Shown here piece by piece: positions 26,709 to 61,090 of a stretch of DNA of 64,000 bases; the stretch's first letter is position 1; every line of letters begins with the position of its first letter. Both the position numbers and the translations under genes were made by a program. The DNA comes from a virus. Where the stretch lies: the IMG/VR virus record IMGVR_UViG_3300045988_159773, one strand, 5' to 3'. The notes under the pieces were generated by a model. The model worked only from the letters and a program-made list of their open reading frames with translations. It was not told where the DNA came from and did no database searches.

Positions 26709-28574
26709 CTACGAGAACTGTTTACCAAACTCCGCGATAAATTGTTCGCGCGTATACGTAATTATTGCCCCATCGACAATCTTGGTCTCGTACTTTCCTT
26801 TGCCACCCTTTATCCAGTGGCTTTGAATGTTCAGCCCGCGAGCCACTTTGATGGGAAATTGAATGTCGTCAAGCGATGCCACTGGAATCGGAACGCACCG
26901 ACAATTTCCCACAAAAATCGCTGGACAAAGTTGATAAATTCCAGTATAATGTTCAATGTTATGAACAAACAAAGAATCTATTCTTCTGACTTTTTTCACA
27001 AGGCGCACAAAATGCACACCATCGATAGAATCCCTATTTGCAAGGTCGCTTCCATCCTTGGATGCAAGAGCGACACGCTCAAGAATGGATTTATTCGTCT
27101 CGGACTCCCATTCACACTCAACATCCCCCCTGCGCAAAGCAAACTCCCCTCGAATAAAATTATTGACAAATTTAATAAAGGTCAGTCTGTTCTCAGCCTT
27201 TCCAAAGAATTCAACGTCGACCGTGGAGTTATTGTGAGACTGCTCAACAACAACGGAATCAAAGAGCGTACTGGTAGCCAAGCCAATATTATCAGATTCC
27301 AAAACACACCGCAAGACCAACTCAAACAGCTCACCAAATCTGCCAATGAGACTCTGCGCGGCAGAAAGTACACCGCTGACGAACTCCACGCCCGCGCCCT
27401 TAAAAGAGAGGTCAACGGAACTATGCACGCGCACATCGGATTCTTTGAAAACGAAGTCCGACAGGAATTTGAAAAGTTCGGATATAAAGTCACTCCGCAA
27501 AAAGCTATCTACGGATACAATGTCGACCTCTTTATCAACGATTCCGTCATTGTGGAAGTCGAACCCGTTGCTCAATTCCTTTTCAAGATGCCCAGCACAC
27601 ATAAAGGCAAAAAACTTAAAGAGCTGCTCAAAGGAAATTACAAGGTCATCTACATTGTTCCCATGAGCAAATCCGCGACTCCCTATAACATAGTCCCCCT
27701 CTTCCAACTCCTTGACCGAACGGAAACCGACTGGAGTCACGAATGGGTGATTAGGTGTAACAGTGACGGTAATGCCATCATCGAAAGTTAAATCAAAGAC
27801 TTCCCCCTCATACTCTCTGCGGTAAACCTTATTTATTCCGTAGAGAGTTTTTATTTCTGTTTCACCACTAAAACAATTAATGAACCGACCGCAGTGGTTC
27901 TGGTAGTTGTCAATCGTTGGCGGGTCATTCCAAAAGAACAGCACCCCGTCCAGAATAGAGTGGGAACTACGCACCCGCGAGTCCTCGCTTGTCGACCAGA
28001 TGTAAGCGTTCAGTCCGATTTTCTGCATACGTAATTGGGTAAGCGTCGAGGTGATTTTTGCAGACTCTGTGCGGATGATTACCCGCGCTCGCTTGCCCAG
28101 TCGCTCCGTCAGTTCTTTGGCAAACTCCGTACCGCGAAACGCCGTCCCTCTCTTATACGCCCTTTCCATATCGAGCGCGATGTCCTGCGGCAGGTCTTTG
28201 ATTAAGGACACGTTATGCCTGAACGCCTCCATGAACCTGTCGTAGTCCTCTTTGTTGTTCAGCAGATTTTTCGCCCGCAAATTCAAGTACTTGTTCCGTG
28301 GATTCTGAATGAACGCGCCGACAATCAACTCGAACTCCTTGCCCGACTTTGCAAAAGTCGAGTTCGACAGGTTGAGGATGGATTGCTTCAACGGCTTTAT
28401 GGTAAACTCGTGCAAAATCATATCAACCTCTTCGTATGATTTTGCCTTGCGAATGCGCGACGTAAGCTGTGCCTCGACTTGCGCTTTGAACGCCGCCGTC
28501 AGCAGATTCTCCTGTGTCCAATTCGATTTCAGTTTGCGATTTATCTTCCTACGGAGTCTTTTCGTCAATTTCAT
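26709..28574 (-). CDS. head morphogenesis protein (SPP1 gp7 / Mu F family) interrupted by an intein
   Basis: 621-aa ORF. N-extein ...ARVIIRTESAKITSTL...IWSTSEDSRVRSSHSILDGVLFFWNDPP...HCGRFIN and C-extein CRCVPIPV... together rebuild the family hallmark (R.E...; D.r.c..C..l.G; hpnCRC). Confidence 0.75.
   Translation of the reverse strand: MKLTKRLRRKINRKLKSNWTQENLLTAAFKAQVEAQLTSRIRKAKSYEEVDMILHEFTIKPLKQSILNLSNSTFAKSGKEFELIVGAFIQNPRNKYLNLRAKNLLNNKEDYDRFMEAFRHNVSLIKDLPQDIALDMERAYKRGTAFRGTEFAKELTERLGKRARVIIRTESAKITSTLTQLRMQKIGLNAYIWSTSEDSRVRSSHSILDGVLFFWNDPPTIDNYQNHCGRFINCFSGETEIKTLYGINKVYRREYEGEVFDLTFDDGITVTVTPNHPFVTPVGFRSVKELEEGDYVIGSRGFAHGNNVDDLVISFEQLFKFFAFMCAGHLEKELSNGFDFHNDGIVDKEVDIVSVDSFLRSDFISELFKFLSDFVFKESDVRVHSSVDLSFKGAGVEFVSGVLSAAQSLIGRFGELFELVLRCVLESDNIGLATSTLFDSVVVEQSHNNSTVDVEFFGKAENRLTFIKFVNNFIRGEFALRRGDVECEWESETNKSILERVALASKDGSDLANRDSIDGVHFVRLVKKVRRIDSLFVHNIEHYTGIYQLCPAIFVGNCRCVPIPVASLDDIQFPIKVARGLNIQSHWIKGGKGKYETKIVDGAIITYTREQFIAEFGKQFS
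26922..26950 (+). promoter_or_regulatory. sigma-70-like promoter on the plus strand (TGGACA-17 nt-TATAAT)
   Basis: -35 at 26922-26927, -10 at 26945-26950. First in-frame ATG after the expected transcription start is 26961 (near-leaderless). Confidence 0.4.
26961..27791 (+). CDS. homing-endonuclease-like protein (two HTH motifs + PD-(D/E)XK/Vsr-like nuclease) encoded antisense inside the intein
   Basis: Plus ORF 26742..27791; ATG at 26949 or 26961. IPICKVASILGCKSDTLKNGFIRLG and GQSVLSLSKEFNVDRGVIVRLLNNNG look like HTH motifs. GFFENEVRQEFEKFGYKV...YGYNVDLFINDSVIVEVE parallels the nuclease cores of 28571..29524 and 37160..38701. Only protein-like plus-strand ORF in the window. Confidence 0.6.
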   Translation: MNKQRIYSSDFFHKAHKMHTIDRIPICKVASILGCKSDTLKNGFIRLGLPFTLNIPPAQSKLPSNKIIDKFNKGQSVLSLSKEFNVDRGVIVRLLNNNGIKERTGSQANIIRFQNTPQDQLKQLTKSANETLRGRKYTADELHARALKREVNGTMHAHIGFFENEVRQEFEKFGYKVTPQKAIYGYNVDLFINDSVIVEVEPVAQFLFKMPSTHKGKKLKELLKGNYKVIYIVPMSKSATPYNIVPLFQLLDRTETDWSHEWVIRCNSDGNAIIES

Positions 28575-51002: not shown

Positions 51003-51466
51003 TTCAACCCCTCCAGCATCACCAGCAGAGCATCGAGGTCGTCCGCAATAAGGTCATACGAGCTCTCCGTGGTAATGCGTATTGGTCTACGAGCCGCCTT
51101 GTTCTCGATGACCTTGCTGTCGCTTGCATACACGAACTTTGGAGTGGACGAGTGAAAGTACACCACCACTCCGTAATGCCCGACGTGGGCGAATTGTGCC
51201 GATTCCTCGAAGTGCTCTAACTGACGGAACGCCGCGCACGAAAACCTCTCATCAGTCGTTGCTTTACATTCGAGTAGAGCTGTGAAGTGCTGGTCGAGGA
51301 CGATGAAGTCGCAAGGGTTAGAAACCCCCTTCCACGACCGTATTGTATGCAAACGCCAGAACTTGCAAGCTCTATGGGAAAGGGCGTCCCGCATCGAATT
51401 CTCGAGCAACGCCCCCAAATCGTTTGATTTTATTGGGCGTTCGCCAATCACTCGACTACTTCCCAT
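50999..51466 (-). CDS. RecU-like Holliday junction resolvase / PD-(D/E)XK nuclease
   Basis: 155 aa. ...SNPCDFIVLDQHFTALLECKAT... (D...E.K core). Confidence 0.5.
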   Translation of the reverse strand: MGSSRVIGERPIKSNDLGALLENSMRDALSHRACKFWRLHTIRSWKGVSNPCDFIVLDQHFTALLECKATTDERFSCAAFRQLEHFEESAQFAHVGHYGVVVYFHSSTPKFVYASDSKVIENKAARRPIRITTESSYDLIADDLDALLVMLEGLK

Positions 51467-51660
51467 CTGTCGCTGAACAGCTCAATCATGGTCTCTTTCC
51501 ATGGAACGCGACCGAAACGACTCTCCACATAGAGATACGGCGCGGTCATCTTGCTGTGTTCGTCGGGATACTGTGCACGAATCACCACATCAGGTGACCA
51601 CTGCGGCAACCGCATTCCCTTTCCCTTCTTTACCTGCTCAAAAGCGTCTCCGAAAACCAT
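51448..51660 (-). CDS. DUF2829 family protein (Tad2-like, candidate anti-Thoeris sponge)
   Basis: 70 aa. MVFGDAFEQVKKGKGMRLPQWSPDVVIRAQ...SKMTAPYLYVESRFGRVPWKETMIELFSDRWEVV fits the DUF2829 pattern (F..A...lk.Gk...R..W...; ...PW....dlla.DWe.v). Confidence 0.55.
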   Translation of the reverse strand: MVFGDAFEQVKKGKGMRLPQWSPDVVIRAQYPDEHSKMTAPYLYVESRFGRVPWKETMIELFSDRWEVVE

Positions 51661-52143: not shown

Positions 52144-52542
52144 CTAAAATGCTTCATACAGTATAATATCTCCGTTCGCCACGCCGAAACCAGATACAAA
52201 CTCAACCTGAAGTGTACTCCCGTCCCACTCTATATTAAGCTGTATACCCATCCAAAACTCAACATTGAGGTAGTTTAATCCAAGGCTTTGACCTTCTGCT
52301 GTACTGTCGAGCGTAAACTCGCGCACCACAGCTGCCCCACTATCTGTTAAACCTACGATTCTAAAAAGCACCCTAACCTTATCTAAATGCTCTCCTACAT
52401 CGATTCGAAAGTTCTTTAAATCCTCTATGGATTCGCTCAACAACGCACGGAGCAGTCTCGCGCGGGGTGGATTGCTCAATGTATAGGCTTCTTCAGTAAG
52501 CCCCCCCATAGATGTCCCTTCAATGGTTCTTCGTGTTTTCAT
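52144..52542 (-). CDS. hypothetical protein, paralog B
   Basis: ORF 52144..52632, but its first 30 codons overlap tRNA-Pro. ATG 52542 follows GGAGGAACTGAT. MKTRRTIEGTSMGGLTEEAYTLSNPP. Confidence 0.6.
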   Translation of the reverse strand: MKTRRTIEGTSMGGLTEEAYTLSNPPRARLLRALLSESIEDLKNFRIDVGEHLDKVRVLFRIVGLTDSGAAVVREFTLDSTAEGQSLGLNYLNVEFWMGIQLNIEWDGSTLQVEFVSGFGVANGDIILYEAF

Positions 52543-52559
52543 ATCAGTTCCTCCGATAT

Positions 52560-52569
52560 TTAAGATAAC
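52560..52569 (-). promoter_or_regulatory. late-promoter-like motif (GTTATCTTAA)
   Basis: Minus strand ACCACTGTTATCTTAAATATCGGAGGAACTGATATG, two nt after the tRNA CCA end. Confidence 0.4.
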
Positions 52570-52571
52570 AG

Positions 52572-52647
52572 TGGTCGGGGTGACAGGATTCGAACCTGCG
52601 ACATCGTGGTCCCAAACCACGCGCTCTACCATCTGCGCTACACCCCG
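52572..52647 (-). tRNA. tRNA-Pro (anticodon UGG), CCA encoded
   Basis: 76 nt folded by hand: CGGGGTG-TA-GCGC-AGATGGTA-GAGC-G-CGTGG-TTTGGGA-CCACG-ATGTC-GCAGG-TTCGAAT-CCTGT-CACCCCG-A-CCA. Canonical T-loop, U33, anticodon TGG. Confidence 0.9.
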
Positions 52648-52728: not shown

Positions 52729-52810
52729 TGGTGGAGTCGGCGGGTACCGCCCCCGCGTCCGACAACCTCCATTTGTTGGTCTAGCTGCCGTCGAATCTTT
52801 TCACAACCCC
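52729..52810 (-). ncRNA. tmRNA tRNA-like-domain (TLD)-only RNA, 82 nt, CCA encoded
   Basis: GGGGTTGTGAAAAGATTCGACGG...GGACGCGGG-GGCGGTA-CCCGCC-GACTCC-ACCA. Compare E. coli ssrA ends GGGGCUGAUUCUGGAUUCGACGG and GGACGCGGGUUCAACUCCCGCCAGCUCCACCA. G3:U70 and A73 present. Only 27 nt (a capped GACCAAC/GTTGTC hairpin) lies between the halves. Confidence 0.6.
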
Positions 52811-52821
52811 TTACATATGTA

Positions 52822-53484
52822 CTATACAAGTTTTCTTCCTCTTTCAAAGCCCGCAGGAAAATTTCCCATAGAATCACTCCACAACTTATTAGAAGTGCCG
52901 TCAGTAATCCAATATTTCCCATACATACCATTCCTGCTACCCGAATGAGACTCTGACATCTTCTTCCTCGATTCTTCGGAAAACACAAAACCAGTAGTCC
53001 CTCTTGTCCTTATTTTGTTCCCGTCCTTATCACAAAAACAGCGAGAACGTTCCTCATCAGTCATCTCCCTTGCCTTCTTTTGATTAGCCTCTTTTAACCT
53101 CTGCAAAATCCGCTTCCTATATTCTGGGTCATTTTTCATTCTCAAATTGTGAGCAGAAAACGCCTTGCCGCCACCTTTGCCACTCCTGTTAATAACATCC
53201 CAAGAACCTCCACCATCATGCATATTCGTGCAATTTGGAAACTTCTTACCCTCAGCAATAAAATGTATTTCAAGAGCATTCAGCTCCTCTTCTGAGTATG
53301 CCCACGCGAGAATATCTCTTCTCAAACCAGCAGTGCCGTGCTTCTCAATATAATCAAAAACAAACTTGCCCGAACCAAAGTAAGATTCCACAACTATTGA
53401 ACTTTTCTTTCTGCCTATATAAAACCGCTCGCCGTAAGTTTTTGAGGGAATATATGTCTTATAAATATATCCATAACGCTCCAT
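52822..53484 (-). CDS. GIY-YIG homing endonuclease (with NUMOD3-like repeats)
   Basis: ORF 52822..53499. ATG 53484 (MERYGYIYKTY...ERFYIGRK) follows GTTATGTTAACT. ...GFVFSEESRKKMSESHSGSRNGMYGK. Sits between two tRNA-like genes. Confidence 0.8.
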   Translation of the reverse strand: MERYGYIYKTYIPSKTYGERFYIGRKKSSIVVESYFGSGKFVFDYIEKHGTAGLRRDILAWAYSEEELNALEIHFIAEGKKFPNCTNMHDGGGSWDVINRSGKGGGKAFSAHNLRMKNDPEYRKRILQRLKEANQKKAREMTDEERSRCFCDKDGNKIRTRGTTGFVFSEESRKKMSESHSGSRNGMYGKYWITDGTSNKLWSDSMGNFPAGFERGRKLV

Positions 53485-53486
53485 AG

Positions 53487-53496
53487 TTAACATAAC
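53487..53496 (-). promoter_or_regulatory. late-promoter-like motif (GTTATGTTAA), 2 nt from ATG
   Basis: Minus strand CTCTATGGTTATGTTAACTATGGAG; same spacing as at 29524 and 6401. Confidence 0.35.
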
Positions 53497-53522
53497 CATA
53501 GAGCGTCATAGAATTGAACTAT

Positions 53523-53601
53523 TGGTGGAGTGAGCTGGACTTTAACCAACAACAGTCTCGCGCAATCGCGGCGACTATTTTCACCGTTAAACTATCACCC
53601 C
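53523..53601 (-). ncRNA. alanine-identity tRNA-like RNA (79 nt) without a canonical anticodon loop, CCA encoded
   Basis: GGGGTGA-TA-GTTT-AACGGTGA-AAAT-AGTCGCCGCGATTGCGCGAGACT-GTT-GTTGG-TTAAAGT-CCAGC-TCACTCC-A-CCA. 7-bp acceptor stem with G3:U70, A73, D-arm and T-arm. The anticodon arm is replaced by a 23-nt hairpin (AGTC..CGCG-ATTG-CGCG..GACT). Confidence 0.5.
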
Positions 53602-53814
53602 ATAAATACGATGCCGCCAGCGTTTATCGGCTTACGTAGCCTCTCCACTATAAGAGGTCGTAGCTGGCTAAGGGTTATTTGCCTTGCTTTCGCCGACATC
53701 GTTTGGTAGGCGTGTGCGGGATTACCACGCCCTCGGAACGGATAACTGCGACATCCCCGTCCCCATACGTCCGCTCCCGTCCAGCGAACGATAACACGAG
53801 CTCAATCGCTCGTC
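53602..53814 (-). ncRNA. ORF-free, GC-rich structured leader RNA upstream of the tRNA-like gene
   Basis: No ORF longer than 14 codons. Hairpins ACGAGC/GCTCGT, CGTTCGCT-GGACGGG-AGCGGACG, GGCGTG-(11)-CACGCC followed by UACCA, CCTCT/AGAGG, and a GAAA tetraloop. Begins about 7 nt after a TATAAT. Confidence 0.4.
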
Positions 53815-53820
53815 ATTATC

Positions 53821-53828
53821 ATTATACA
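53821..53828 (-). promoter_or_regulatory. -10 element TGTATAAT driving the RNA locus
   Basis: Minus strand TAAATTCTGTATAATGATAATGACG, immediately after the stop of 53833..54180. Confidence 0.4.
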
Positions 53829-53832
53829 GAAT

Positions 53833-54180
53833 TTAGACCTCACCTCGAGAAACTGCCAACAAAAATTTGAAAGTCTTTTCATCCATTGCGTAGTAGTTTT
53901 GCCCATCCCCGAAAGAGAAACAGACAGCCGCATACGATTTGAGCATCTGCGCTCTTTCCTCTTCCACCTTATCAAACCACTCTTTATGTATGGTCATGGA
54001 CTCGTGAGGGGTAACCTTTGTCTTGCACTCAATCACCCACTCATCTACTAAAACATCATATTTATTAAAGTTTCCGCCTCCGCTTTGAATATCATTTGTA
54101 CCGCCCAACGACTTGGCAACAGCCTTCTCTTGTAACTTTGAATAAAAACGTGTCGGTCTGTTTTCCTTTTCAATCTTCAT
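53833..54180 (-). CDS. Hjc-like Holliday junction resolvase / PD-(D/E)XK nuclease
   Basis: 115 aa. EKAVAKSLGGTNDIQSGGGNFNKYDVLVDEWVIECKTK (E...D...E.K arrangement as in archaeal-type resolvases). Confidence 0.5.
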   Translation of the reverse strand: MKIEKENRPTRFYSKLQEKAVAKSLGGTNDIQSGGGNFNKYDVLVDEWVIECKTKVTPHESMTIHKEWFDKVEEERAQMLKSYAAVCFSFGDGQNYYAMDEKTFKFLLAVSRGEV

Positions 54181-55024
54181 CGTGCCTCACTCTCCACTTA
54201 CCCTTACAATCTTCACATCGTTCTTGCCAACGCCCATTACGTCCCTTGTGAGCAGTAAAGGTCTTCCCACATATTATACAAGAATCTTCGCGCACCCAGA
54301 CCGAACCACGTCCGAACTTCTCACGCTTTTCTTCGGGTGTCATTCTCGCATAAGTCGCTCGCATCTTTTCAATCCCCAATCTCCTGCCCTCTTCGGCACT
54401 CAAGCCACTCTGACGAGCCTGTACCACACCAGAGCGTCCTGGACGAGTAGCCCACCACCTTCGAACACCATCAGATATTTTAGCCCGTGCTTCGGCTGAA
54501 ACAACGCGACCAGAATTAGCATCGCTTATCTTTTTATTGATAGCCACACGCTCCTCATCCGACATCCTCTTGTGCTGCTCTATCGCTGCCATCCTCAATC
54601 GCTCGCGTACTTCTGGAGTCCTCGACCGTCTTGCTGATTCAGACATACGTGCACGAACTTCATCCGACACAACACGACCACGCAAACCATTGCTTATCTT
54701 CATCTTTGCCACATCCGAATGATGATTATTAAATCCATCAAATGCAGTCAAAGTATTATATCCAAACTCTGGCAAGTAAGACCTAAACACGTGATGCCAC
54801 TCGAACTCTTTTTGCCGCAACTCTTGAACAGAACACTCCTCCAACAACTCAAAAACAAAACAGCCAGAGCCAAACTCCTTCCATTCTTCCCTTAAATGAA
54901 CGTTGGGATGCGTCCCCAGCATTAAGTTGCTGACGTGACCATCCCAACGATGTAAAATATCTTTTGACTTCCCAATGTAAACCCGACCGTTAATTACATT
55001 CCAGATTCTATAAATTCCAACCAT
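54170..55024 (-). CDS. GIY-YIG homing endonuclease (NUMOD3-like repeats, C-terminal Zn cluster)
   Basis: ORF 54170..55093; ATG 55024 (MVGIYRIWNVINGRVYIGKS...) follows GTTATTGTACTT. Lies 16 nt downstream of the DNA polymerase stop. Confidence 0.8.
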   Translation of the reverse strand: MVGIYRIWNVINGRVYIGKSKDILHRWDGHVSNLMLGTHPNVHLREEWKEFGSGCFVFELLEECSVQELRQKEFEWHHVFRSYLPEFGYNTLTAFDGFNNHHSDVAKMKISNGLRGRVVSDEVRARMSESARRSRTPEVRERLRMAAIEQHKRMSDEERVAINKKISDANSGRVVSAEARAKISDGVRRWWATRPGRSGVVQARQSGLSAEEGRRLGIEKMRATYARMTPEEKREKFGRGSVWVREDSCIICGKTFTAHKGRNGRWQERCEDCKGKWRVRHDED

Positions 55025-55026
55025 AA

Positions 55027-55036
55027 GTACAATAAC
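55027..55036 (-). promoter_or_regulatory. late-promoter-like motif (GTTATTGTAC), 2 nt from ATG
   Basis: Minus strand GACGTTGTTATTGTACTTATGGTT. Confidence 0.35.
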
Positions 55037-55040
55037 AACG

Positions 55041-57233
55041 TCACGACTTCTGCCAGAACTCCATAACTTCGGGCTCGCACCAGATTTTTGCACGACCGAC
55101 CTCAGACCCGACCTCCGACATCACGTCCGCCATATACTTGCCGCCTTCCACCGCAAGCTCTTCGGGGAACTCCGCAATAAGCTCGTCGTGAACCTGTAAC
55201 AGAATCTGACCGTGATATTTCTCACGGAATACGGGGTCGCGGAACAAAGCAATCATACACACCTTCGTCTGGTCCGCCGCCGAACCCTGACAGTACTGGT
55301 TACATGTCTGGCGCAATTCGTCCGTCTGATTCCAACGGTTGTCGTAAACCTCGATTCCCTCCGCCCTTGCCTCGTCCAGACACGCGCGAATCTGGTTGTA
55401 ATATTTCAACTTGTTCAGCGTGTCAGCCACCTCGGGGTGGTCGGGGCAATCGAACGCAGGTCCGCCGAGATACTTAAAATACCTACGCCGACCGAGAACC
55501 GTCTCCATATACCCATACTTCGTGCCGAACTCCGCACAGTCTTCCTGGAACTTCTTGACGTAGGGGAATCCTGCGTAGAACTTTTCGAGGATTCTGTCGC
55601 ATTCCTCGACCGTGTAAACGTGGTCGGACGAATCGTTATTAAGGGATTCAGCCAGCGACTTTGAACCCATGCCGTAGGTCACGCCGAGAACGATGGACTT
55701 GCACCTGTTTCTCAAATGCTTGTGCTTTCCTTTCTTGGTACATTCCTCGTACGGCAAGTCCCAGATGATGGATGCCATCAGCGCGTAGTAGTCGCGACCA
55801 GAGTTTGCGCCTTCCAACATCCTTGGGTCTTGCGAGCCGCCAGCCAAAATCGCCTGTTCCTGCTGCGAGAAGTCGCACGACACCAACTTGTGACCTGGAC
55901 GAGCCACGAACCCGCGTCGGAACCTGTTGTCCTTCGGCTGGTTTTGCAGATTCGGTCCAGACGAGCTGAAACGACCTGTATCAGCCCCGATGGTGTGATA
56001 CGTCGTATGCACGATGGGTATTCCGTTTTCGTCGTCAATGGCGAAACCTGGTATCGCTTCCGTATACGTCGAAATAGATTTGGTCAGTTTGCGAATCTCA
56101 AGAATGAGTTTCGGAATAGGGTGGTGCATCTTCGCGAGGAATTCCTCGCCCGTCTGCCGCTTCTTCGACACGTCTGGCAAGCGCAAGCGGTCGAACAGAA
56201 CCTCGCCCACCTGCTTCGGCGAGTTCGGATTAAAGCCTGGGAAGTCGCGCTGAATCTCAGCCAACTTCGCATCAACCTCGCTCCGCAGAGCCGCAGTGAA
56301 CTGTGCATAGTATTCGCGGTCGATGGCGATGCCTTTCATCTCCATATCCATGACCACTTCGATAAGCGGCAGTTCCACATTCTTCATCAGTTTGTAAATG
56401 CGAGGAAAGTGCTCACGCATTTTCTTCTCCTGATACTTTCCGAGAATGTAGTGCTTGATTGCGTCCACGCCGCCGTAGATACCCACGACAGCGGGGTCGT
56501 ATTTCGAGAACTTCTGCTTGAATAAAGACTTGTAGTCGTAGAATTCCTCGTCGGGGTCGATGTATTTTATGTACTGCGGTTTCAGCGCGGCGAGGTCTCT
56601 GTTGTCCAACAGCCGCGCCCCGATTTCAGCGTCCCAGCACATCGGGATGTCAAACCCAGCCGCCGACGTCGCGTACTTGTGACCACGCGCCTCCACCTCA
56701 GCTGGGTCGCGCAAAAACTCATATTTCTTGCCCGCCCAGATTTTCATCTGCGAACGGTCAAACTTCGTGTTCATTCCCCAGTACTTCCGACCGCCGCCCG
56801 TCAGTATTTCCTTGAGCCTGTCAAGGTCACCCGTATAGTTCTGCCCTTTCTCGTGGAACAGCGGAACATAAATACAGTCCTTGTCATTGCCAATCGAAAA
56901 CCCGACCAGATTGTCGAACCATACGCTGTCTTTGCCGTTCGTCTCGGTGTCGAAACCAAGTTCGGGTCGCGCCACCATATACTCGATGAGCTCTTCCTCG
57001 GTCGTTACCAACTGATAACGCTTCTCATATTTGGCGAACAGCTGCTTGATGCGCTGCGCGACCTCAATAGAGTCGTCTGGAATTGCTTTTGCCTTCGGCG
57101 TCTTGACCGCTTTTGGCGCGGCTGTGACCCCCAAATCTGTGGTCACAGAGAACAGCTGCCCCGTCTTTTTTGGTTCGGCTGTCCCCGACTTCTCAGCCTT
57201 CTTCGTCGGCTGAACTGGATTCTTTATAAGCAT
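55041..57233 (-). CDS. family A DNA polymerase (Pol I-like, with 3'-5' exonuclease domain)
   Basis: 730 aa. GFDTETNG (Exo I), CDFSQQEQAILA (motif A), RNRCKSIVLGVTYGMG (motif B), LQVHDELI (motif C). Confidence 0.9.
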   Translation of the reverse strand: MLIKNPVQPTKKAEKSGTAEPKKTGQLFSVTTDLGVTAAPKAVKTPKAKAIPDDSIEVAQRIKQLFAKYEKRYQLVTTEEELIEYMVARPELGFDTETNGKDSVWFDNLVGFSIGNDKDCIYVPLFHEKGQNYTGDLDRLKEILTGGGRKYWGMNTKFDRSQMKIWAGKKYEFLRDPAEVEARGHKYATSAAGFDIPMCWDAEIGARLLDNRDLAALKPQYIKYIDPDEEFYDYKSLFKQKFSKYDPAVVGIYGGVDAIKHYILGKYQEKKMREHFPRIYKLMKNVELPLIEVVMDMEMKGIAIDREYYAQFTAALRSEVDAKLAEIQRDFPGFNPNSPKQVGEVLFDRLRLPDVSKKRQTGEEFLAKMHHPIPKLILEIRKLTKSISTYTEAIPGFAIDDENGIPIVHTTYHTIGADTGRFSSSGPNLQNQPKDNRFRRGFVARPGHKLVSCDFSQQEQAILAGGSQDPRMLEGANSGRDYYALMASIIWDLPYEECTKKGKHKHLRNRCKSIVLGVTYGMGSKSLAESLNNDSSDHVYTVEECDRILEKFYAGFPYVKKFQEDCAEFGTKYGYMETVLGRRRYFKYLGGPAFDCPDHPEVADTLNKLKYYNQIRACLDEARAEGIEVYDNRWNQTDELRQTCNQYCQGSAADQTKVCMIALFRDPVFREKYHGQILLQVHDELIAEFPEELAVEGGKYMADVMSEVGSEVGRAKIWCEPEVMEFWQKS

Positions 57234-59210: not shown

Positions 59211-59669
59211 TTACTCGTTAACTACTGTTACAAAACTGTCCACATAGCCCTGCAAGATTTCGAGTGCGTTTCCGATGACCGCGTTCTTTTCACGGATGAT
59301 GTACTCGGGAACGTGACGCTCGCGCTTCGCGTTTCTTTCAAGAGCCGTTTTCAAGCTCACTTTCACATAGCACAGCTCGACCCAGAAACCATACTCTTGC
59401 GCTTCCTTGATGATTCCGACAACGCGCTCCGCGTTCGTAGCCGTCGTATCATAAATAAAGTCTTCATCACCGCAAATCGCTTTCGTAAGCTCAATGCGCT
59501 CGAGCCTCTTGCTTTCTTCGTGAACCGCCGCAGGATTCAAAGGGTCGTATCCCTTGCACAACTTTTTCAACTCGTCGCAATCTATGGTTTTCAGACCTGC
59601 GTAACGTGCACGCGCTACCGTGCTTTTGCCCGCCCCGCTCAAACCTGCCATGATAACCATCTTTTTCAT
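59211..59669 (-). CDS. P-loop kinase (AAA_33 / zeta-toxin / polynucleotide-kinase-like)
   Basis: ORF 59211..59711; ATG 59669 follows GGAGGTTTCTT. MKKMVIMAGLSGAGKST Walker A. Confidence 0.55.
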   Translation of the reverse strand: MKKMVIMAGLSGAGKSTVARARYAGLKTIDCDELKKLCKGYDPLNPAAVHEESKRLERIELTKAICGDEDFIYDTTATNAERVVGIIKEAQEYGFWVELCYVKVSLKTALERNAKRERHVPEYIIREKNAVIGNALEILQGYVDSFVTVVNE

Positions 59670-59699
59670 AAGAAACCTCCAAACCTTGATTACGTGTTT

Positions 59700-59728
59700 A
59701 CTATACCACATTTTAATTGAGATTGCAA
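59700..59728 (-). promoter_or_regulatory. sigma-70-type promoter, cassette copy 3 (TTGCAA-17-TATAGT, TG extended)
   Basis: Minus strand AAACGCTTGCAATCTCAATTAAAATGTGGTATAGT with upstream TTTTAATTAAAAT. Confidence 0.65.
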
Positions 59729-59800: not shown

Positions 59801-61090
59801 TCAATAAACTGATGTTTCGTCCTTGTCTGTTCGAATGATGTCAAGCCAGATTGGGAAACGGAGCGAACGCGAACCGTCCTTGTCGTACGATACCTCGAAA
59901 CATTTCAGCTCGACAATCTTGCCGATGAGCAGTTCGGGGTGCGCCCAGTACTTGTCACGCTGCTCGAACGTGAACCCAGAGCCGCATTTGGACGTATATG
60001 TCTTGCCGTCGATGTCGAACTCAACGTGGATACCGCCGAGAGTGCCGACCAGAGCTCCGATGCCTTCGAACACTCCCGTCACCCGCGCATCGACCGTCTT
60101 GAACTTCTTGACTTTGAGCAGGTCTCTCGTGCGCTTCGCCTGGTAAGGCGCGTCAGCCACATTAAGCATCAAGCCCTCCCAGCCGTTCTCCTGAGCGATA
60201 GCCGCCCACTCATTAATCTTCGATTGGTCGCTCCCCTCGTACAGGATGTCAACATTTGTAACCCACGACAGCTCACCATCCGCCGCAATACTCGCACTGA
60301 GTTTATGCTTACGCTCAATGCAAGTCTCCGCCGAGTATCCGTCAAGGAAGTCGCTTATCGGTAAACGGTCAAATACATGATAGACCAACCCCGACTTAAC
60401 GCCCTTGCTGTTTGCACTCGATACTGTAGCCCTGAACACATCTCCAGATGCGCCGTCTGCCTTGGCAATCAGCTCTCCGTCATATGCAACTCCGCGCTCT
60501 GCTATTGAAAGCAAGTCCGCCGCGACATCGGGAACCTCGCCGTAGTCCTGACCGTTGCGAGTAAAGAACTGCACCTCTCCGTTGTCGTGGACGAACGCCA
60601 CACAGCGAACCCCGTCCAACTTTTGCGTAACGATGAACTCCTTGCCGTCGAGGTGCTTCGGATTGTCGGCGAACGACTCCGCCAGCATTACTGCGAATAC
60701 CTTAATAAAGCCCTTGCCGTAAATCTTGTTCACCGTTGACGTATCAACACCGAATTTGAGCGATTTGGTGAACAACTGCAACAGCCAATCTCTATGCTCT
60801 GGAAAGCCGTTTGCATAATGGGAAACCACCGCAACGTCCTCCATTCTGCCTGTGTTATGCTTACGCAAATAGTTTAGAACTCCAACCAAGTCGAATGAAC
60901 GCTCTTGCCGAATATTTCCATACTTTTCGATTTTGTTCATCGAAATTCCTGTCACGACCATCGGGTCGAGTAAGAACTTGAGAACCTCAGTCCAAAGCTC
61001 GTTGTCCTTGTTCGCTTCGAGTATCGCCGCCTTTTCATTTCGGCTCGACGTCGCTTGCAGTTGCTCAATTATTTCCTTGATTCTTTCCAT
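59801..61090 (-). CDS. ATP-dependent DNA ligase
   Basis: 429 aa. VTQKLDGVRCV (motif I KxDG), WEGLMLN (motif IV), DLLKVKKF (motif V). Confidence 0.85.
   Translation of the reverse strand: MERIKEIIEQLQATSSRNEKAAILEANKDNELWTEVLKFLLDPMVVTGISMNKIEKYGNIRQERSFDLVGVLNYLRKHNTGRMEDVAVVSHYANGFPEHRDWLLQLFTKSLKFGVDTSTVNKIYGKGFIKVFAVMLAESFADNPKHLDGKEFIVTQKLDGVRCVAFVHDNGEVQFFTRNGQDYGEVPDVAADLLSIAERGVAYDGELIAKADGASGDVFRATVSSANSKGVKSGLVYHVFDRLPISDFLDGYSAETCIERKHKLSASIAADGELSWVTNVDILYEGSDQSKINEWAAIAQENGWEGLMLNVADAPYQAKRTRDLLKVKKFKTVDARVTGVFEGIGALVGTLGGIHVEFDIDGKTYTSKCGSGFTFEQRDKYWAHPELLIGKIVELKCFEVSYDKDGSRSLRFPIWLDIIRTDKDETSVY

Follow-up and report, generated by a model that had tools for sequence, protein, structure and literature searches.

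The element described here is a gene for a 79-nt tRNA-like RNA, found in a stretch of 64,000 nucleotides of viral DNA (IMG/VR record IMGVR_UViG_3300045988_159773) that is called the window in the following. All genes of the window are on the minus strand, and the RNA reads in the sequence from its 5' end at 53601 to its 3' end at 53523. An earlier reading of the bare sequence, referred to as the original prediction, had described it as an RNA of alanine identity in which a closed hairpin takes the place of the anticodon arm. Two natural alleles of the gene were found among related contigs; the one in the window is called allele A. The gene and its parts are as follows.

53523..53601, minus: anticodon-less tRNA-like RNA with alanine identity elements, 79 nt, allele A; RF00005 42.2 bits, no ARAGORN call
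53595..53601, minus: 5' strand of the acceptor stem, GGGGUGA (G1-A7), pairing with 53533..53527
53577..53592, minus: candidate D arm, GUUU-AACGGUGA-AAAU, aligned as D arm by RF00005
53555..53575, minus: central arm in place of the anticodon arm, GUC-GC-CGCG-AUUG-CGCG-A-GAC, RNAfold pair probabilities 0.87-0.99
53534..53550, minus: T arm, GUUGG-UUAAAGU-CCAGC, 5 bp and a 7-nt loop with A replacing C56
53523..53533, minus: 3' strand of the acceptor stem UCACUCC, A73 and encoded CCA, as read in the sequence

The full RNA is GGGGUGA-UA-GUUU-AACGGUGA-AAAU-A-GUC-GC-CGCG-AUUG-CGCG-A-GAC-UGUU-GUUGG-UUAAAGU-CCAGC-UCACUCC-A-CCA. Its central arm consists of a 3-bp stem (GUC/GAC), an internal loop (GC/A), a 4-bp stem (CGCG/CGCG) and the tetraloop AUUG; the discriminator A73 is position 53526 and the encoded CCA occupies 53525..53523. 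The 7-bp acceptor stem with its G3:U70 pair, the discriminator, the CCA end and the T arm are present as originally described, and the closed CGCG-AUUG-CGCG hairpin is borne out by the pair probabilities. The D-arm sequence is present too, as a possible arm that the energy model disfavours.

The gene escapes routine annotation. ARAGORN, run on the whole 64-kb window, calls a tRNA-Pro(UGG) only, and this is also the single tRNA that Rfam returns with its default speed filters, which lose the 42-bit match to the 79-nt RNA. It takes laxer filters to bring up this RF00005 match, which covers 53601..53526; its 42.2 bits exceed the gathering cut-off of 29, and the E-value is 8.7e-7 when 4 kb are searched and 8e-8 for 371 nt. 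The covariance model finds no normal anticodon loop in it: in the alignment the 7-nt loop of the model is reduced to one base and 11 nt are placed as an insertion. A 5-bp stem with a 7-nt loop could be placed neither by this alignment nor by RNAfold, in allele A or in allele B, in agreement with what had been noted from the letters. The decoding-like fold with a 4-bp stem and a 9-nt loop reaches -17.1 kcal/mol and is thus about 10 kcal/mol worse than the minimum free energy (MFE) fold.

The MFE fold itself has -27.7 kcal/mol (z = -2.78, RNAfold) and a stable central hairpin. It leaves 15 nt single-stranded (nt 8-22), followed by a central arm of 7+4 bp and, without a linker, the T arm. A cloverleaf comes to -23.7 kcal/mol, as the weak D stem loses to a 4-bp extension of the central arm in which AAUA pairs with UGUU; D-stem pair probabilities are about 0 in the energy model. 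By sequence, both the 4-bp D stem of A-U and G-U pairs and a GG in the D loop are present. Because the D stem is lost to the extension for energetic reasons, the RNA may adopt either a cloverleaf or a form like the tRNA-like domain (TLD) of transfer-messenger RNA (tmRNA), in which a long central helix follows a single-stranded 5' linker; the predicted MFE layout matches that of TLD-only RNAs in its single-stranded 5' linker, long closed central helix and T arm. That the T loop is without C56 holds for allele A; allele B has the loop UUCAAUU. Since allele B has C56 and UUAAAGU is also the T loop of ordinary decoding phage tRNAs (Lys and Ala; contigs L006, L015 and L030), the deviating loop was rejected as a mark of lost function. 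A gene for a tRNA-like RNA with a sealed anticodon arm is present at this locus, far beyond what is expected by chance.

The identity set of bacterial AlaRS comprises A73, G2:C71, G3.U70 and G4:C69 and no element of the anticodon (PMC9976931). All of these acceptor-stem determinants are found in the 79-nt RNA. For the minor determinant G20, position 20 can be counted as U or as G, according to the numbering of the D loop AACGGUGA. The original claim of an alanine acceptor, recognised through G3:U70 independently of the anticodon, is in line with this set, and the claim that the RNA cannot decode agrees with the missing anticodon loop of both alleles. An alanine-identity acceptor that is unable to decode is supported by these sequence features, and we regard it as very probable that the gene encodes such an RNA and that it is maintained.

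By its sequence the 79-nt RNA is a remodelled tRNA-Ala and not derived from a tmRNA. For its core the best alignment is that to a genuine phage tRNA-Ala(UGC) from L030 (z = 4.3, none of 500 shuffles aligning as well), while the same test against the TLD of L066 gives z = 2.3. This alignment, together with the UUGC at the apex of the central arm, argues for descent from tRNA-Ala. With the tRNA-Ala(UGC) of L030 (539..614) it shares the acceptor identity set, the CCA, a similar D arm, the UUAAAGU loop and a core of the form GUCGC...UUGC...GCGA; it differs in the sealed 3+4-bp hairpin with a 3-4-nt loop that replaces the 5-bp stem and 7-nt loop. A covariance model (R1) was built from four TLD-only RNAs of the same phage clade, with the TLD of L077 held out. 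R1 assigns 73 bits to this held-out sequence and 55 bits to the TLD-only ssrA of mycobacteriophage DS6A, but 19.5 bits (E 0.04) to the 79-nt RNA, which is close to the controls tRNA-Pro (20.9) and normal tRNA-Ala (21.3). Where a TLD has the D-loop analogue (G)GAUUCGACG and GGAC before the T arm, the 79-nt RNA reads GUUUAACGG and CUGUU, and 79 nt leave no room for pseudoknots or a tag reading frame. A divergent TLD was therefore rejected, given the R1 score like that of ordinary tRNAs and the core nearer to tRNA-Ala. The RNA groups with the tmRNAs in none of these respects and lacks the anticodon loop that defines a tRNA; it is best filed among the known non-decoding alanine-acceptor RNAs as a tRNA-Ala-derived variant, and such a tRNA-Ala-derived partner is new to that group.

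Directly downstream, the 79-nt gene is followed by an endonuclease gene and a second RNA.

52822..53499, minus: GIY-YIG/NUMOD3 homing endonuclease, 225 aa, N-terminus MERYGYIYKT; PHROG 314 (E 4e-20), Pfam NUMOD3
52729..52810, minus: TLD-only tmRNA (ssrA without coding region), acceptor GGGGUUG/CGACUCC-A-CCA; RF00023 39.7 bits
52572..52647, minus: ordinary decoding tRNA-Pro(UGG) with encoded CCA at the downstream end of the cluster; ARAGORN, RF00005 62.8 bits
52651..53569, minus: mobile cassette, comprising the 3' 47 nt of the tRNA-like gene, the endonuclease gene, the TLD-only RNA and a spacer

The TLD-like RNA that had been suspected about 700 nt downstream is real (52810..52729). Its 39.7 bits on RF00023 stay below the cut-off of 47, with the 306-position mRNA-like domain replaced by 13 nt; R1 gives it 87.8 bits, this sequence being part of the training set. 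A 162-aa open reading frame (ORF; 52144..52632, minus) overlaps the tRNA-Pro by about 60 nt. Its true start is probably downstream of the tRNA-Pro, because the counterpart in L079 (134 aa) is called from an internal start.

Relatives of the window were collected as contigs carrying metagenomic homologues of its family A DNA polymerase, at 100, 84, 76, 75, 70, 67, 66, 65, 64 and 46% identity. The gene order around the polymerase is common to all relatives of at least 64% polymerase identity. All but one of these share a set of elements behind the resolvase-like gene: the box T(G/T)GTATAxT, the structured leader and, beginning right behind a U, an RNA of the form GGGG...CUCC-A-CCA. None of the latter RNAs is called by ARAGORN, though it calls the ordinary tRNAs next to them. 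These RNAs, seen at polymerase identities of 64-87%, differ widely in size and shape.

L066, L068 and L072: 83 nt, TLD-only tmRNA, RF00023 44.3 bits
L077: 82 nt, TLD-only tmRNA
L067: 57 nt, acceptor, 22-nt linker and T arm, followed by a TLD-only RNA with RF00023 69.4 bits
L075: 56 nt, acceptor, one 5-bp hairpin and T arm
L076: 64 nt, D arm, mini-hairpin CUG-CUUG-CAG and a T arm with the UUAAAGU loop of the window
L071: two RNAs of 77 and 79 nt
L070: no such RNA, a normal tRNA-Lys only at the position

In L085, the relative of 46% polymerase identity, no RNA cluster was found. Most of the relatives of 64% polymerase identity or more have a TLD-only tmRNA in addition, with RF00023 scores reaching 69 bits. 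The pairing of an anticodon-less RNA with a TLD-only tmRNA is seen in the window, L073, L079 (58.4 bits) and L067 (69.4 bits); in this comparison of sequences the originally suggested theme of non-decoding alanine acceptors recurs. In L066 (6116..7394), and also in L068 and L072, the spacers between the tRNAs measure 200-335 nt and are GC-rich; a reverse-strand ORF called there is probably spurious, and the spacers may hold further structured RNAs.

Twelve related RNAs, ten from the clade and one each from L005 and L009, were compared over the acceptor/T minihelix alone, because the MAFFT alignment of the tRNA-derived members is too poor in the core. G1:C72, G2:C71, G3:U70, A73 and CCA are invariant in 12 of 12. 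G4:C69 is kept in nine, pairs 5-7 covary, and compensatory changes occur at 8 of the 12 pairs of the minihelix. Alanine identity had not been required of the ten clade sequences; for L005 and L009 the search pattern demanded U70-C71-C72-A73-CCA, so that only G1-G3 are independent in these two. The invariant and nearly invariant positions coincide with the identity set of bacterial AlaRS.

Beyond the clade, a single metagenome scan with a pattern (T loop plus U70-CC-ACCA) returned a mixed set that was sorted by hand, and the resulting sample is small and biased by this pattern. L005/L012 (89 nt) and L009 (79 nt), which are unrelated phage contigs, have G3:U70, A73, CCA and a T arm GUUGxUGG-UUAAAGU-CCAxC in common with allele A; their central arms are closed but unlike that of allele A. 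Anticodon-less tRNA-shaped genes with G3:U70 are present in L005 (3042..3130), L009 (653..731) and also L025, while L008 (621..708), L011 (7054..7135), L019 (3967..4056) and L024 contain tRNA-shaped genes with closed or oversized central arms and encoded CCA without G3:U70. ARAGORN missed these seven genes or assigned no anticodon to them (tRNA-??? in L019). Exact patterns of the 5' half and of the T arm plus acceptor retrieved from the viral contigs only L005 and the source contig of the window, which is the 76.7-kb IMG/VR contig UViG_3300045988_156059. The pattern GTTGNTGGTTAAAGTCCA yielded no new member in the viral and genome collections, as its 34 new stretches were all without a pairing acceptor stem plus CCA; many of them resemble coding sequence. 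Searches with the resolvase-like protein and the polymerase returned from the viral contigs essentially the source contig alone. When the region was compared at the DNA level with 50,697 cultured-phage records, in near as well as distant searches, only the tRNA-Pro was matched. The best polymerase match among cultured phages is 30.5% identical and comes from Listeria phages.

On its 5' side the 79-nt gene is preceded by a non-coding stretch of 230 nt, which separates it from the resolvase-like gene. The features around the RNA cluster are:

55041..57233, minus (57233..55041): family A DNA polymerase
54170..55093, minus (55093..54170): first GIY-YIG homing endonuclease, between the polymerase and the resolvase-like gene
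53833..54180, minus (54180..53833): resolvase-like protein
53821..53828, minus: promoter-like TGTATAAT with the -10 element TATAAT at 53826..53821, at the stop codon of the resolvase-like gene
53602..53814, minus: structured leader RNA of about 213 nt, directly 5' of the tRNA-like RNA
53470..53512, minus: long imperfect hairpin followed by a T-rich tract, terminator-like, right after the CCA and over the endonuclease start codon at 53499
51448..51660, minus: Tad2-like (anti-Thoeris) protein, Pfam E 1.3e-10

As the box, with C, A or T before its last T, lies at the same place in every relative, we infer that transcription starts near 53814 from a promoter of its own; a generic sigma-70 scan of the region gave one weak match, TTGGCA-18-TAAATT. 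The leader forms three hairpins, one of which bears GGUAAUCCYGCA as a conserved loop. A closed multibranch domain follows that holds an invariant AAGG-CAAAUAA-CCUU hairpin, and the leader ends with UAUUUAU before G1. Homologous leaders were found in L073 (7628..7896), L066 (5826..6032, also in L068), L072 (7758..7953) and L079 (5880..6105). RNAalifold predicts 51 pairs from four distinct sequences, 21 of which show compensatory changes. No Rfam family matches the leader at E<=10, and inspection by eye of five relatives revealed no conserved reading frame; the short frames at the start of the transcript vary among the relatives in frame, length and sequence. The leader was also considered as the displaced mRNA-like domain of a permuted tmRNA, which was rejected because no tmRNA or permuted-tmRNA match of Rfam reaches it. 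The position before G1 is a U in all relatives, consistent with a putative RNase P site. Behind the RNA, the hairpin at 53470..53512 may attenuate readthrough or mask the start of the endonuclease gene.

This arrangement allows for the explanation that the tRNA-like fold serves mainly as a processing handle, i.e. a punctuation mark for RNase P and RNase Z which frees the leader as the true non-coding RNA and splits a polycistronic precursor, so that charging would be irrelevant. The leader is indeed conserved and covarying, it always abuts an acceptor RNA with U at -1, and the core of the RNA behind it is so variable (56-83 nt, tRNA-like or TLD-like) as if the shape of the minihelix alone mattered. 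A known case of this kind is mascRNA of MALAT1, a tRNA-like fold 3' of a structured non-coding RNA that serves as RNase P site and has no conserved aminoacylation identity. The likeness lies in the placement; the difference is that here the alanine identity is invariant across varied cores. RNase P needs no G3:U70, G2:C71, A73 or CCA, yet G1-G3, U70-C72, A73 and CCA are the invariant elements, and pairs 5-7 and the T stem vary freely while G4:C69 is largely kept. Moreover, non-alanine decoding tRNAs of the same clusters could punctuate equally well, and a second alanine acceptor follows without any leader in the same genomes. We consider such a handle unlikely.

A second natural allele bears on whether the sealed arm is maintained. 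The contigs with a polymerase 100% identical to that of the window include L078, L079 and L080, of which L079 and L080 come from two separate assemblies. Allele A is found in identical copies in L073, L074 and L078, and L078 matches the window, while L079 and L080 carry allele B and are without the second, GIY-YIG/NUMOD3 endonuclease gene. In the latter two contigs the leader is 98-100% identical to that of the window and the tRNA-like gene agrees fully over its first 32 nt, whereas the sequence from nt 33 to 3 nt before the tRNA-Pro is replaced by about 600 nt. Allele B has the same length of 79 nt. Its apical hairpin is CAGC-AUA-GCUG instead of CGCG-AUUG-CGCG, with three of the four pairs changed on both sides, and its T arm is GUG(U)GG-UUCAAUU-CCCAC instead of GUUGG-UUAAAGU-CCAGC, with two altered pairs, one in both of its bases and the other in a single base, and with a bulged U. 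Nowhere do the changes break a pair, and neither the lower stem GUC/GAC nor the internal loop differs between the alleles. RF00005 gives allele B 40.5 bits, again without an anticodon loop. Since the UUGC is not kept in allele B, the closed arm and not a remnant of the anticodon is the conserved feature. In L079 the order after allele B is a 55-nt mini tRNA-like fold without CCA and then a different TLD-only RNA, whose 58.4 bits on RF00023 exceed the curated cut-off of 47. Both versions of the phage thus carry an anticodon-less RNA together with a TLD-only tmRNA, and the pair is therefore kept. The 55-nt fold (L079 6188..6242) is built of a 6-bp acceptor-like stem, the hairpin GGGC-GCAA-GCCC and a T arm of canonical form; it lacks alanine identity as well as CCA and is confined to the endonuclease-free allele.

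The alleles differ by a cassette exchange. About 920 nt in the window stand against about 600 nt with other RNA genes in L079 (6138..6739), one junction being located behind nt 32 of the tRNA-like gene and the other 3 nt short of the tRNA-Pro. In L073 and L074, whose polymerase is 84% identical to that of the window, the 79-nt RNA is 100% identical, and from G1 to the tRNA-Pro there is but one difference, which falls in the 678-nt endonuclease gene. The L073 cassette is 99.9-100% identical to the window, while the region from polymerase to resolvase-like gene is 85.6% identical and the leader about 50-70%, with indels. The identity of the RNA in L073 was therefore rejected as a sign of purifying selection, as the endonuclease gene and the whole cassette are just as similar. 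The left junction varies (G1 in L073, after nt 32 against L079) and the right one is fixed at the tRNA-Pro, a pattern that fits co-conversion during homing and suggests that the endonuclease homes into the RNA cluster.

These data bear on the explanation named with the original prediction as its possible refutation, namely a decaying tRNA-Ala pseudogene without conservation. A small insertion would have broken the anticodon loop of a tRNA-Ala(UGC), the remnant hitch-hiking with the endonuclease cassette. The alignment of the core, which is best to phage tRNA-Ala(UGC), speaks for it, as does the UUGC that persists at the apex, where deletion of CGCG would restore a near-canonical stem with the loop A-U-UGC-G-C; the identity in L073 reflects cassette transfer, and L070 has no such RNA at all. 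On the other hand all helices are intact, and the apex of allele B, after three double compensatory changes, is still closed, neither restored nor randomised. Independent lineages carry other non-decoding alanine acceptors at the same position, and the genome of the phage is a compact one whose genes all share one strand. The comparison of the alleles indicates that the closed hairpin was kept through compensatory change, and we judge decay to be quite unlikely.

A further explanation accepts the alanine acceptor and assigns it a different use. As a donor, the RNA would feed alanine to a non-ribosomal enzyme (Fem/MurM-type transferases, Ala-phosphatidylglycerol synthase or RqcH-type alanine tailing) while the decoding pool is spared; as an acceptor-end decoy, it would soak up toxins such as toxSAS pyrophosphokinases, MenT nucleotidyltransferases or GNAT acetyltransferases. 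Either use would suit a conservation that is confined to the acceptor/T half and alanine identity. The Tad2-like anti-defence gene is part of the same module; it lies just downstream of the RNA cluster, at a distance of about 2 kb, and keeps this place in the relatives. The concept of non-proteinogenic tRNAs which stay away from the ribosome is well established; in Staphylococcus, tRNA-Gly species serve cell-wall synthesis. But no transferase or toxin partner is found among the ORFs scanned (about 30 of about 70), the host cannot be inferred from a nearest cultured-phage polymerase of 30.5% identity, and RqcH reads the anticodon of tRNA-Ala, while allele B has no UUGC. We give this explanation, too, a small chance only. 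Among the roles named in the original prediction a decoy for tRNA-targeting defence nucleases is the least attractive, because the best-known of these nucleases cut anticodon loops, which are missing here.

It is also conceivable that the sequence matters as DNA, being the recognition or cleavage site of the GIY-YIG endonuclease, with allele A as the cleavage-resistant version. The gene itself contains the cassette junction, located behind nt 32, and the block is nearly identical in L073 where the flanking genes have diverged to 85.6%. Free-standing GIY-YIG endonucleases are known from phage tRNA clusters: that of T4 encodes SegB and also the stable 'species 1 and 2' RNAs, so that it resembles the present locus in harbouring non-tRNA RNAs and a GIY-YIG endonuclease. 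A homing site accounts for the polymorphism between A and B, but not for a closed hairpin, alanine identity and CCA in both alleles, and the endonuclease-free contigs L066, L067, L075 and L076 still keep non-decoding alanine acceptors. As a replacement for a functional alanine acceptor it is very improbable, and it is compatible with that explanation rather than in conflict with it.

Finally, a decoding tRNA with an exotic loop, formed by a 4-bp stem UCGC/GCGA and the 9-nt loop CGCGAUUGC or by removal of a few nucleotides at maturation, is close to refuted in spite of the UGC in the central arm of allele A, since that fold has -17.1 against -27.7 kcal/mol, the UGC would abut the stem so that positions 37 and 38 would be missing, UGC is absent from allele B, and we know of no bacterial mechanism that removes a 4-nt insert.

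The closest known system is DS6A, which carries a TLD-only ssrA (PMC4131195, PMC11915505). In E. coli, a TLD-only RNA of this type is a strong inhibitor of tmRNA whether or not it can be charged, perhaps because it titrates SmpB (PMC4131195; PMC11915505). tmRNAs without a coding sequence also occur in jakobid mitochondria and some plastids, according to PMC4131195 and PMC11915505 and to Mao et al. 2009 as cited there. The DS6A gene was located at 28478..28560 of the phage record (L086, JN698994), where it is unannotated in GenBank. Its RNA likewise measures about 80 nt, has the form GGGG.../...CUCC-A-CCA with G3:U70, a T arm and a closed central helix, contains no reading frame and can neither decode nor tag, and the RNA at 52810..52729 of the window is of the same kind. 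The 79-nt RNA differs in that its profile is not that of a TLD and that it may form a D stem, with GG in the D loop. While one such RNA is reported for DS6A, a tRNA-derived and a tmRNA-derived one stand here side by side behind a structured leader. The DS6A ssrA and the L066 RNA have the apical motif AAA(A/G)CCGCACGCGG in common. Minihelices and microhelices of tRNA-Ala are charged by AlaRS without an anticodon (Francklyn & Schimmel 1989, as summarised in PMC9976931); they share the acceptor-T helix, G3:U70 and A73 with the 79-nt RNA, but are laboratory constructs, in contrast to a natural gene with D region and central arm. For phage tRNAs with changes in the anticodon loop, evasion of host anticodon nucleases has been proposed (PMC10264068); those described there still decode, whereas in the 79-nt RNA the loop is abolished.

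The reading that we prefer is a functional alanine acceptor that works by occupying host factors. The RNA would be transcribed from its own promoter behind the structured leader. RNase P would cut after U-1 to give G1, and the CCA is already encoded. Host AlaRS would then load alanine: the determinants are in place, alanine identity does not depend on the anticodon, and AlaRS also charges minihelices. With its arm sealed by 3+4 bp and a loop of 3-4 nt, the RNA is predicted not to read any codon, while EF-Tu should, by established knowledge, be able to bind the charged acceptor/T helix. Together with the TLD-only tmRNA it may act as a non-decoding competitor for AlaRS, EF-Tu and possibly SmpB and the rescue machinery, by analogy with DS6A. 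The most likely effect would be that trans-translation and ribosome rescue of the host are damped or redirected during infection. This titration role, drawn from the analogy, is a tentative proposal. For the explanation as a whole, i.e. a functional phage gene, derived from tRNA-Ala, chargeable, non-decoding and acting by titration, we estimate a probability of about 0.5, a compromise between our high confidence in the maintained acceptor and our much lower confidence in the titration role.

Several observations weigh against this explanation. The tmRNA motifs UUCGACG and GGAC are absent from the 79-nt RNA; as these motifs are missing and the R1 score is tRNA-like, binding of SmpB cannot be assumed, and the RNA's own target may differ from SmpB. 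The precedent for factor titration is limited to the TLD-only form. No SmpB, AlaRS or other obvious partner is encoded among the roughly 30 of about 70 window ORFs that were scanned. Covariation for the exact 79-nt RNA amounts to two alleles, one of which has a bulged U in the T stem, and the identity of allele A in L073 and L074 reflects a recent transfer, as the whole cassette is nearly identical. The high percentage of paired cells in the comparison of relatives is partly circular, because the scan demanded pairing. At least some members of the clade can dispense with the RNA, since L070 has a tRNA-Lys only.

Other genes of the window deserve a short mention. The ORF of the first GIY-YIG endonuclease overlaps the 3' end of the polymerase gene by about 50 nt; this endonuclease gene occurs in L070 and L073 but not in L066, L067 or L075. 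Small ORFs, the Tad2-like gene and a helicase gene follow downstream of the tRNA-Pro. Upstream of the polymerase gene an AAA_33/Zeta-toxin-like kinase (59211..59711, minus) adjoins an ATP-dependent ligase with a weak RNA-ligase match (59801..61090, minus); the two could be an end-healing and sealing pair for nucleic-acid repair. A Mu F-like head protein (26709..28574, minus) shows a weak match to an intein-splicing domain in the middle of the protein (E 1.4e-5, below the Pfam cut-off) and possibly contains an intein, which would be a further mobile element.

The usual explanations for tRNA genes in phages are codon supply or the replacement of tRNAs that were cut by host defence. An RNA that has kept alanine identity and lost decoding fits neither. 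The TLD-only tmRNA of DS6A is the only precedent and has seen little follow-up. Specialists would hardly expect the pairing of two RNA types, the leader and the mobility on an endonuclease cassette. Such genes are probably under-counted, because ARAGORN, the default Rfam filters and the GenBank record of DS6A all miss them. With two natural alleles and variants of the same phage with and without the endonuclease, the locus is a compact, testable system, and the neglected question why phages carry tmRNA-like RNAs that are unable to tag becomes accessible. The clade, and probably L005 and L009 as well, may keep a modular kit of leader-borne, endonuclease-shuffled alanine acceptors that do not decode, with one member from tRNA-Ala and one from tmRNA, as an active counter-measure directed at alanine-dependent quality control or against defence at the acceptor end. 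In this reading, which we hold to be possible though doubtful, the targets would be trans-translation, ribosome rescue or alanine tailing, and the tRNA-derived member would have a target other than SmpB. The position of a tRNA-Ala-derived RNA beside a TLD-only tmRNA, its maintenance by compensatory change and its recurrence in many shapes suggest that manipulation of the alanine-specific branch of the translation machinery, which does not depend on the anticodon, is a recurrent strategy of phages.

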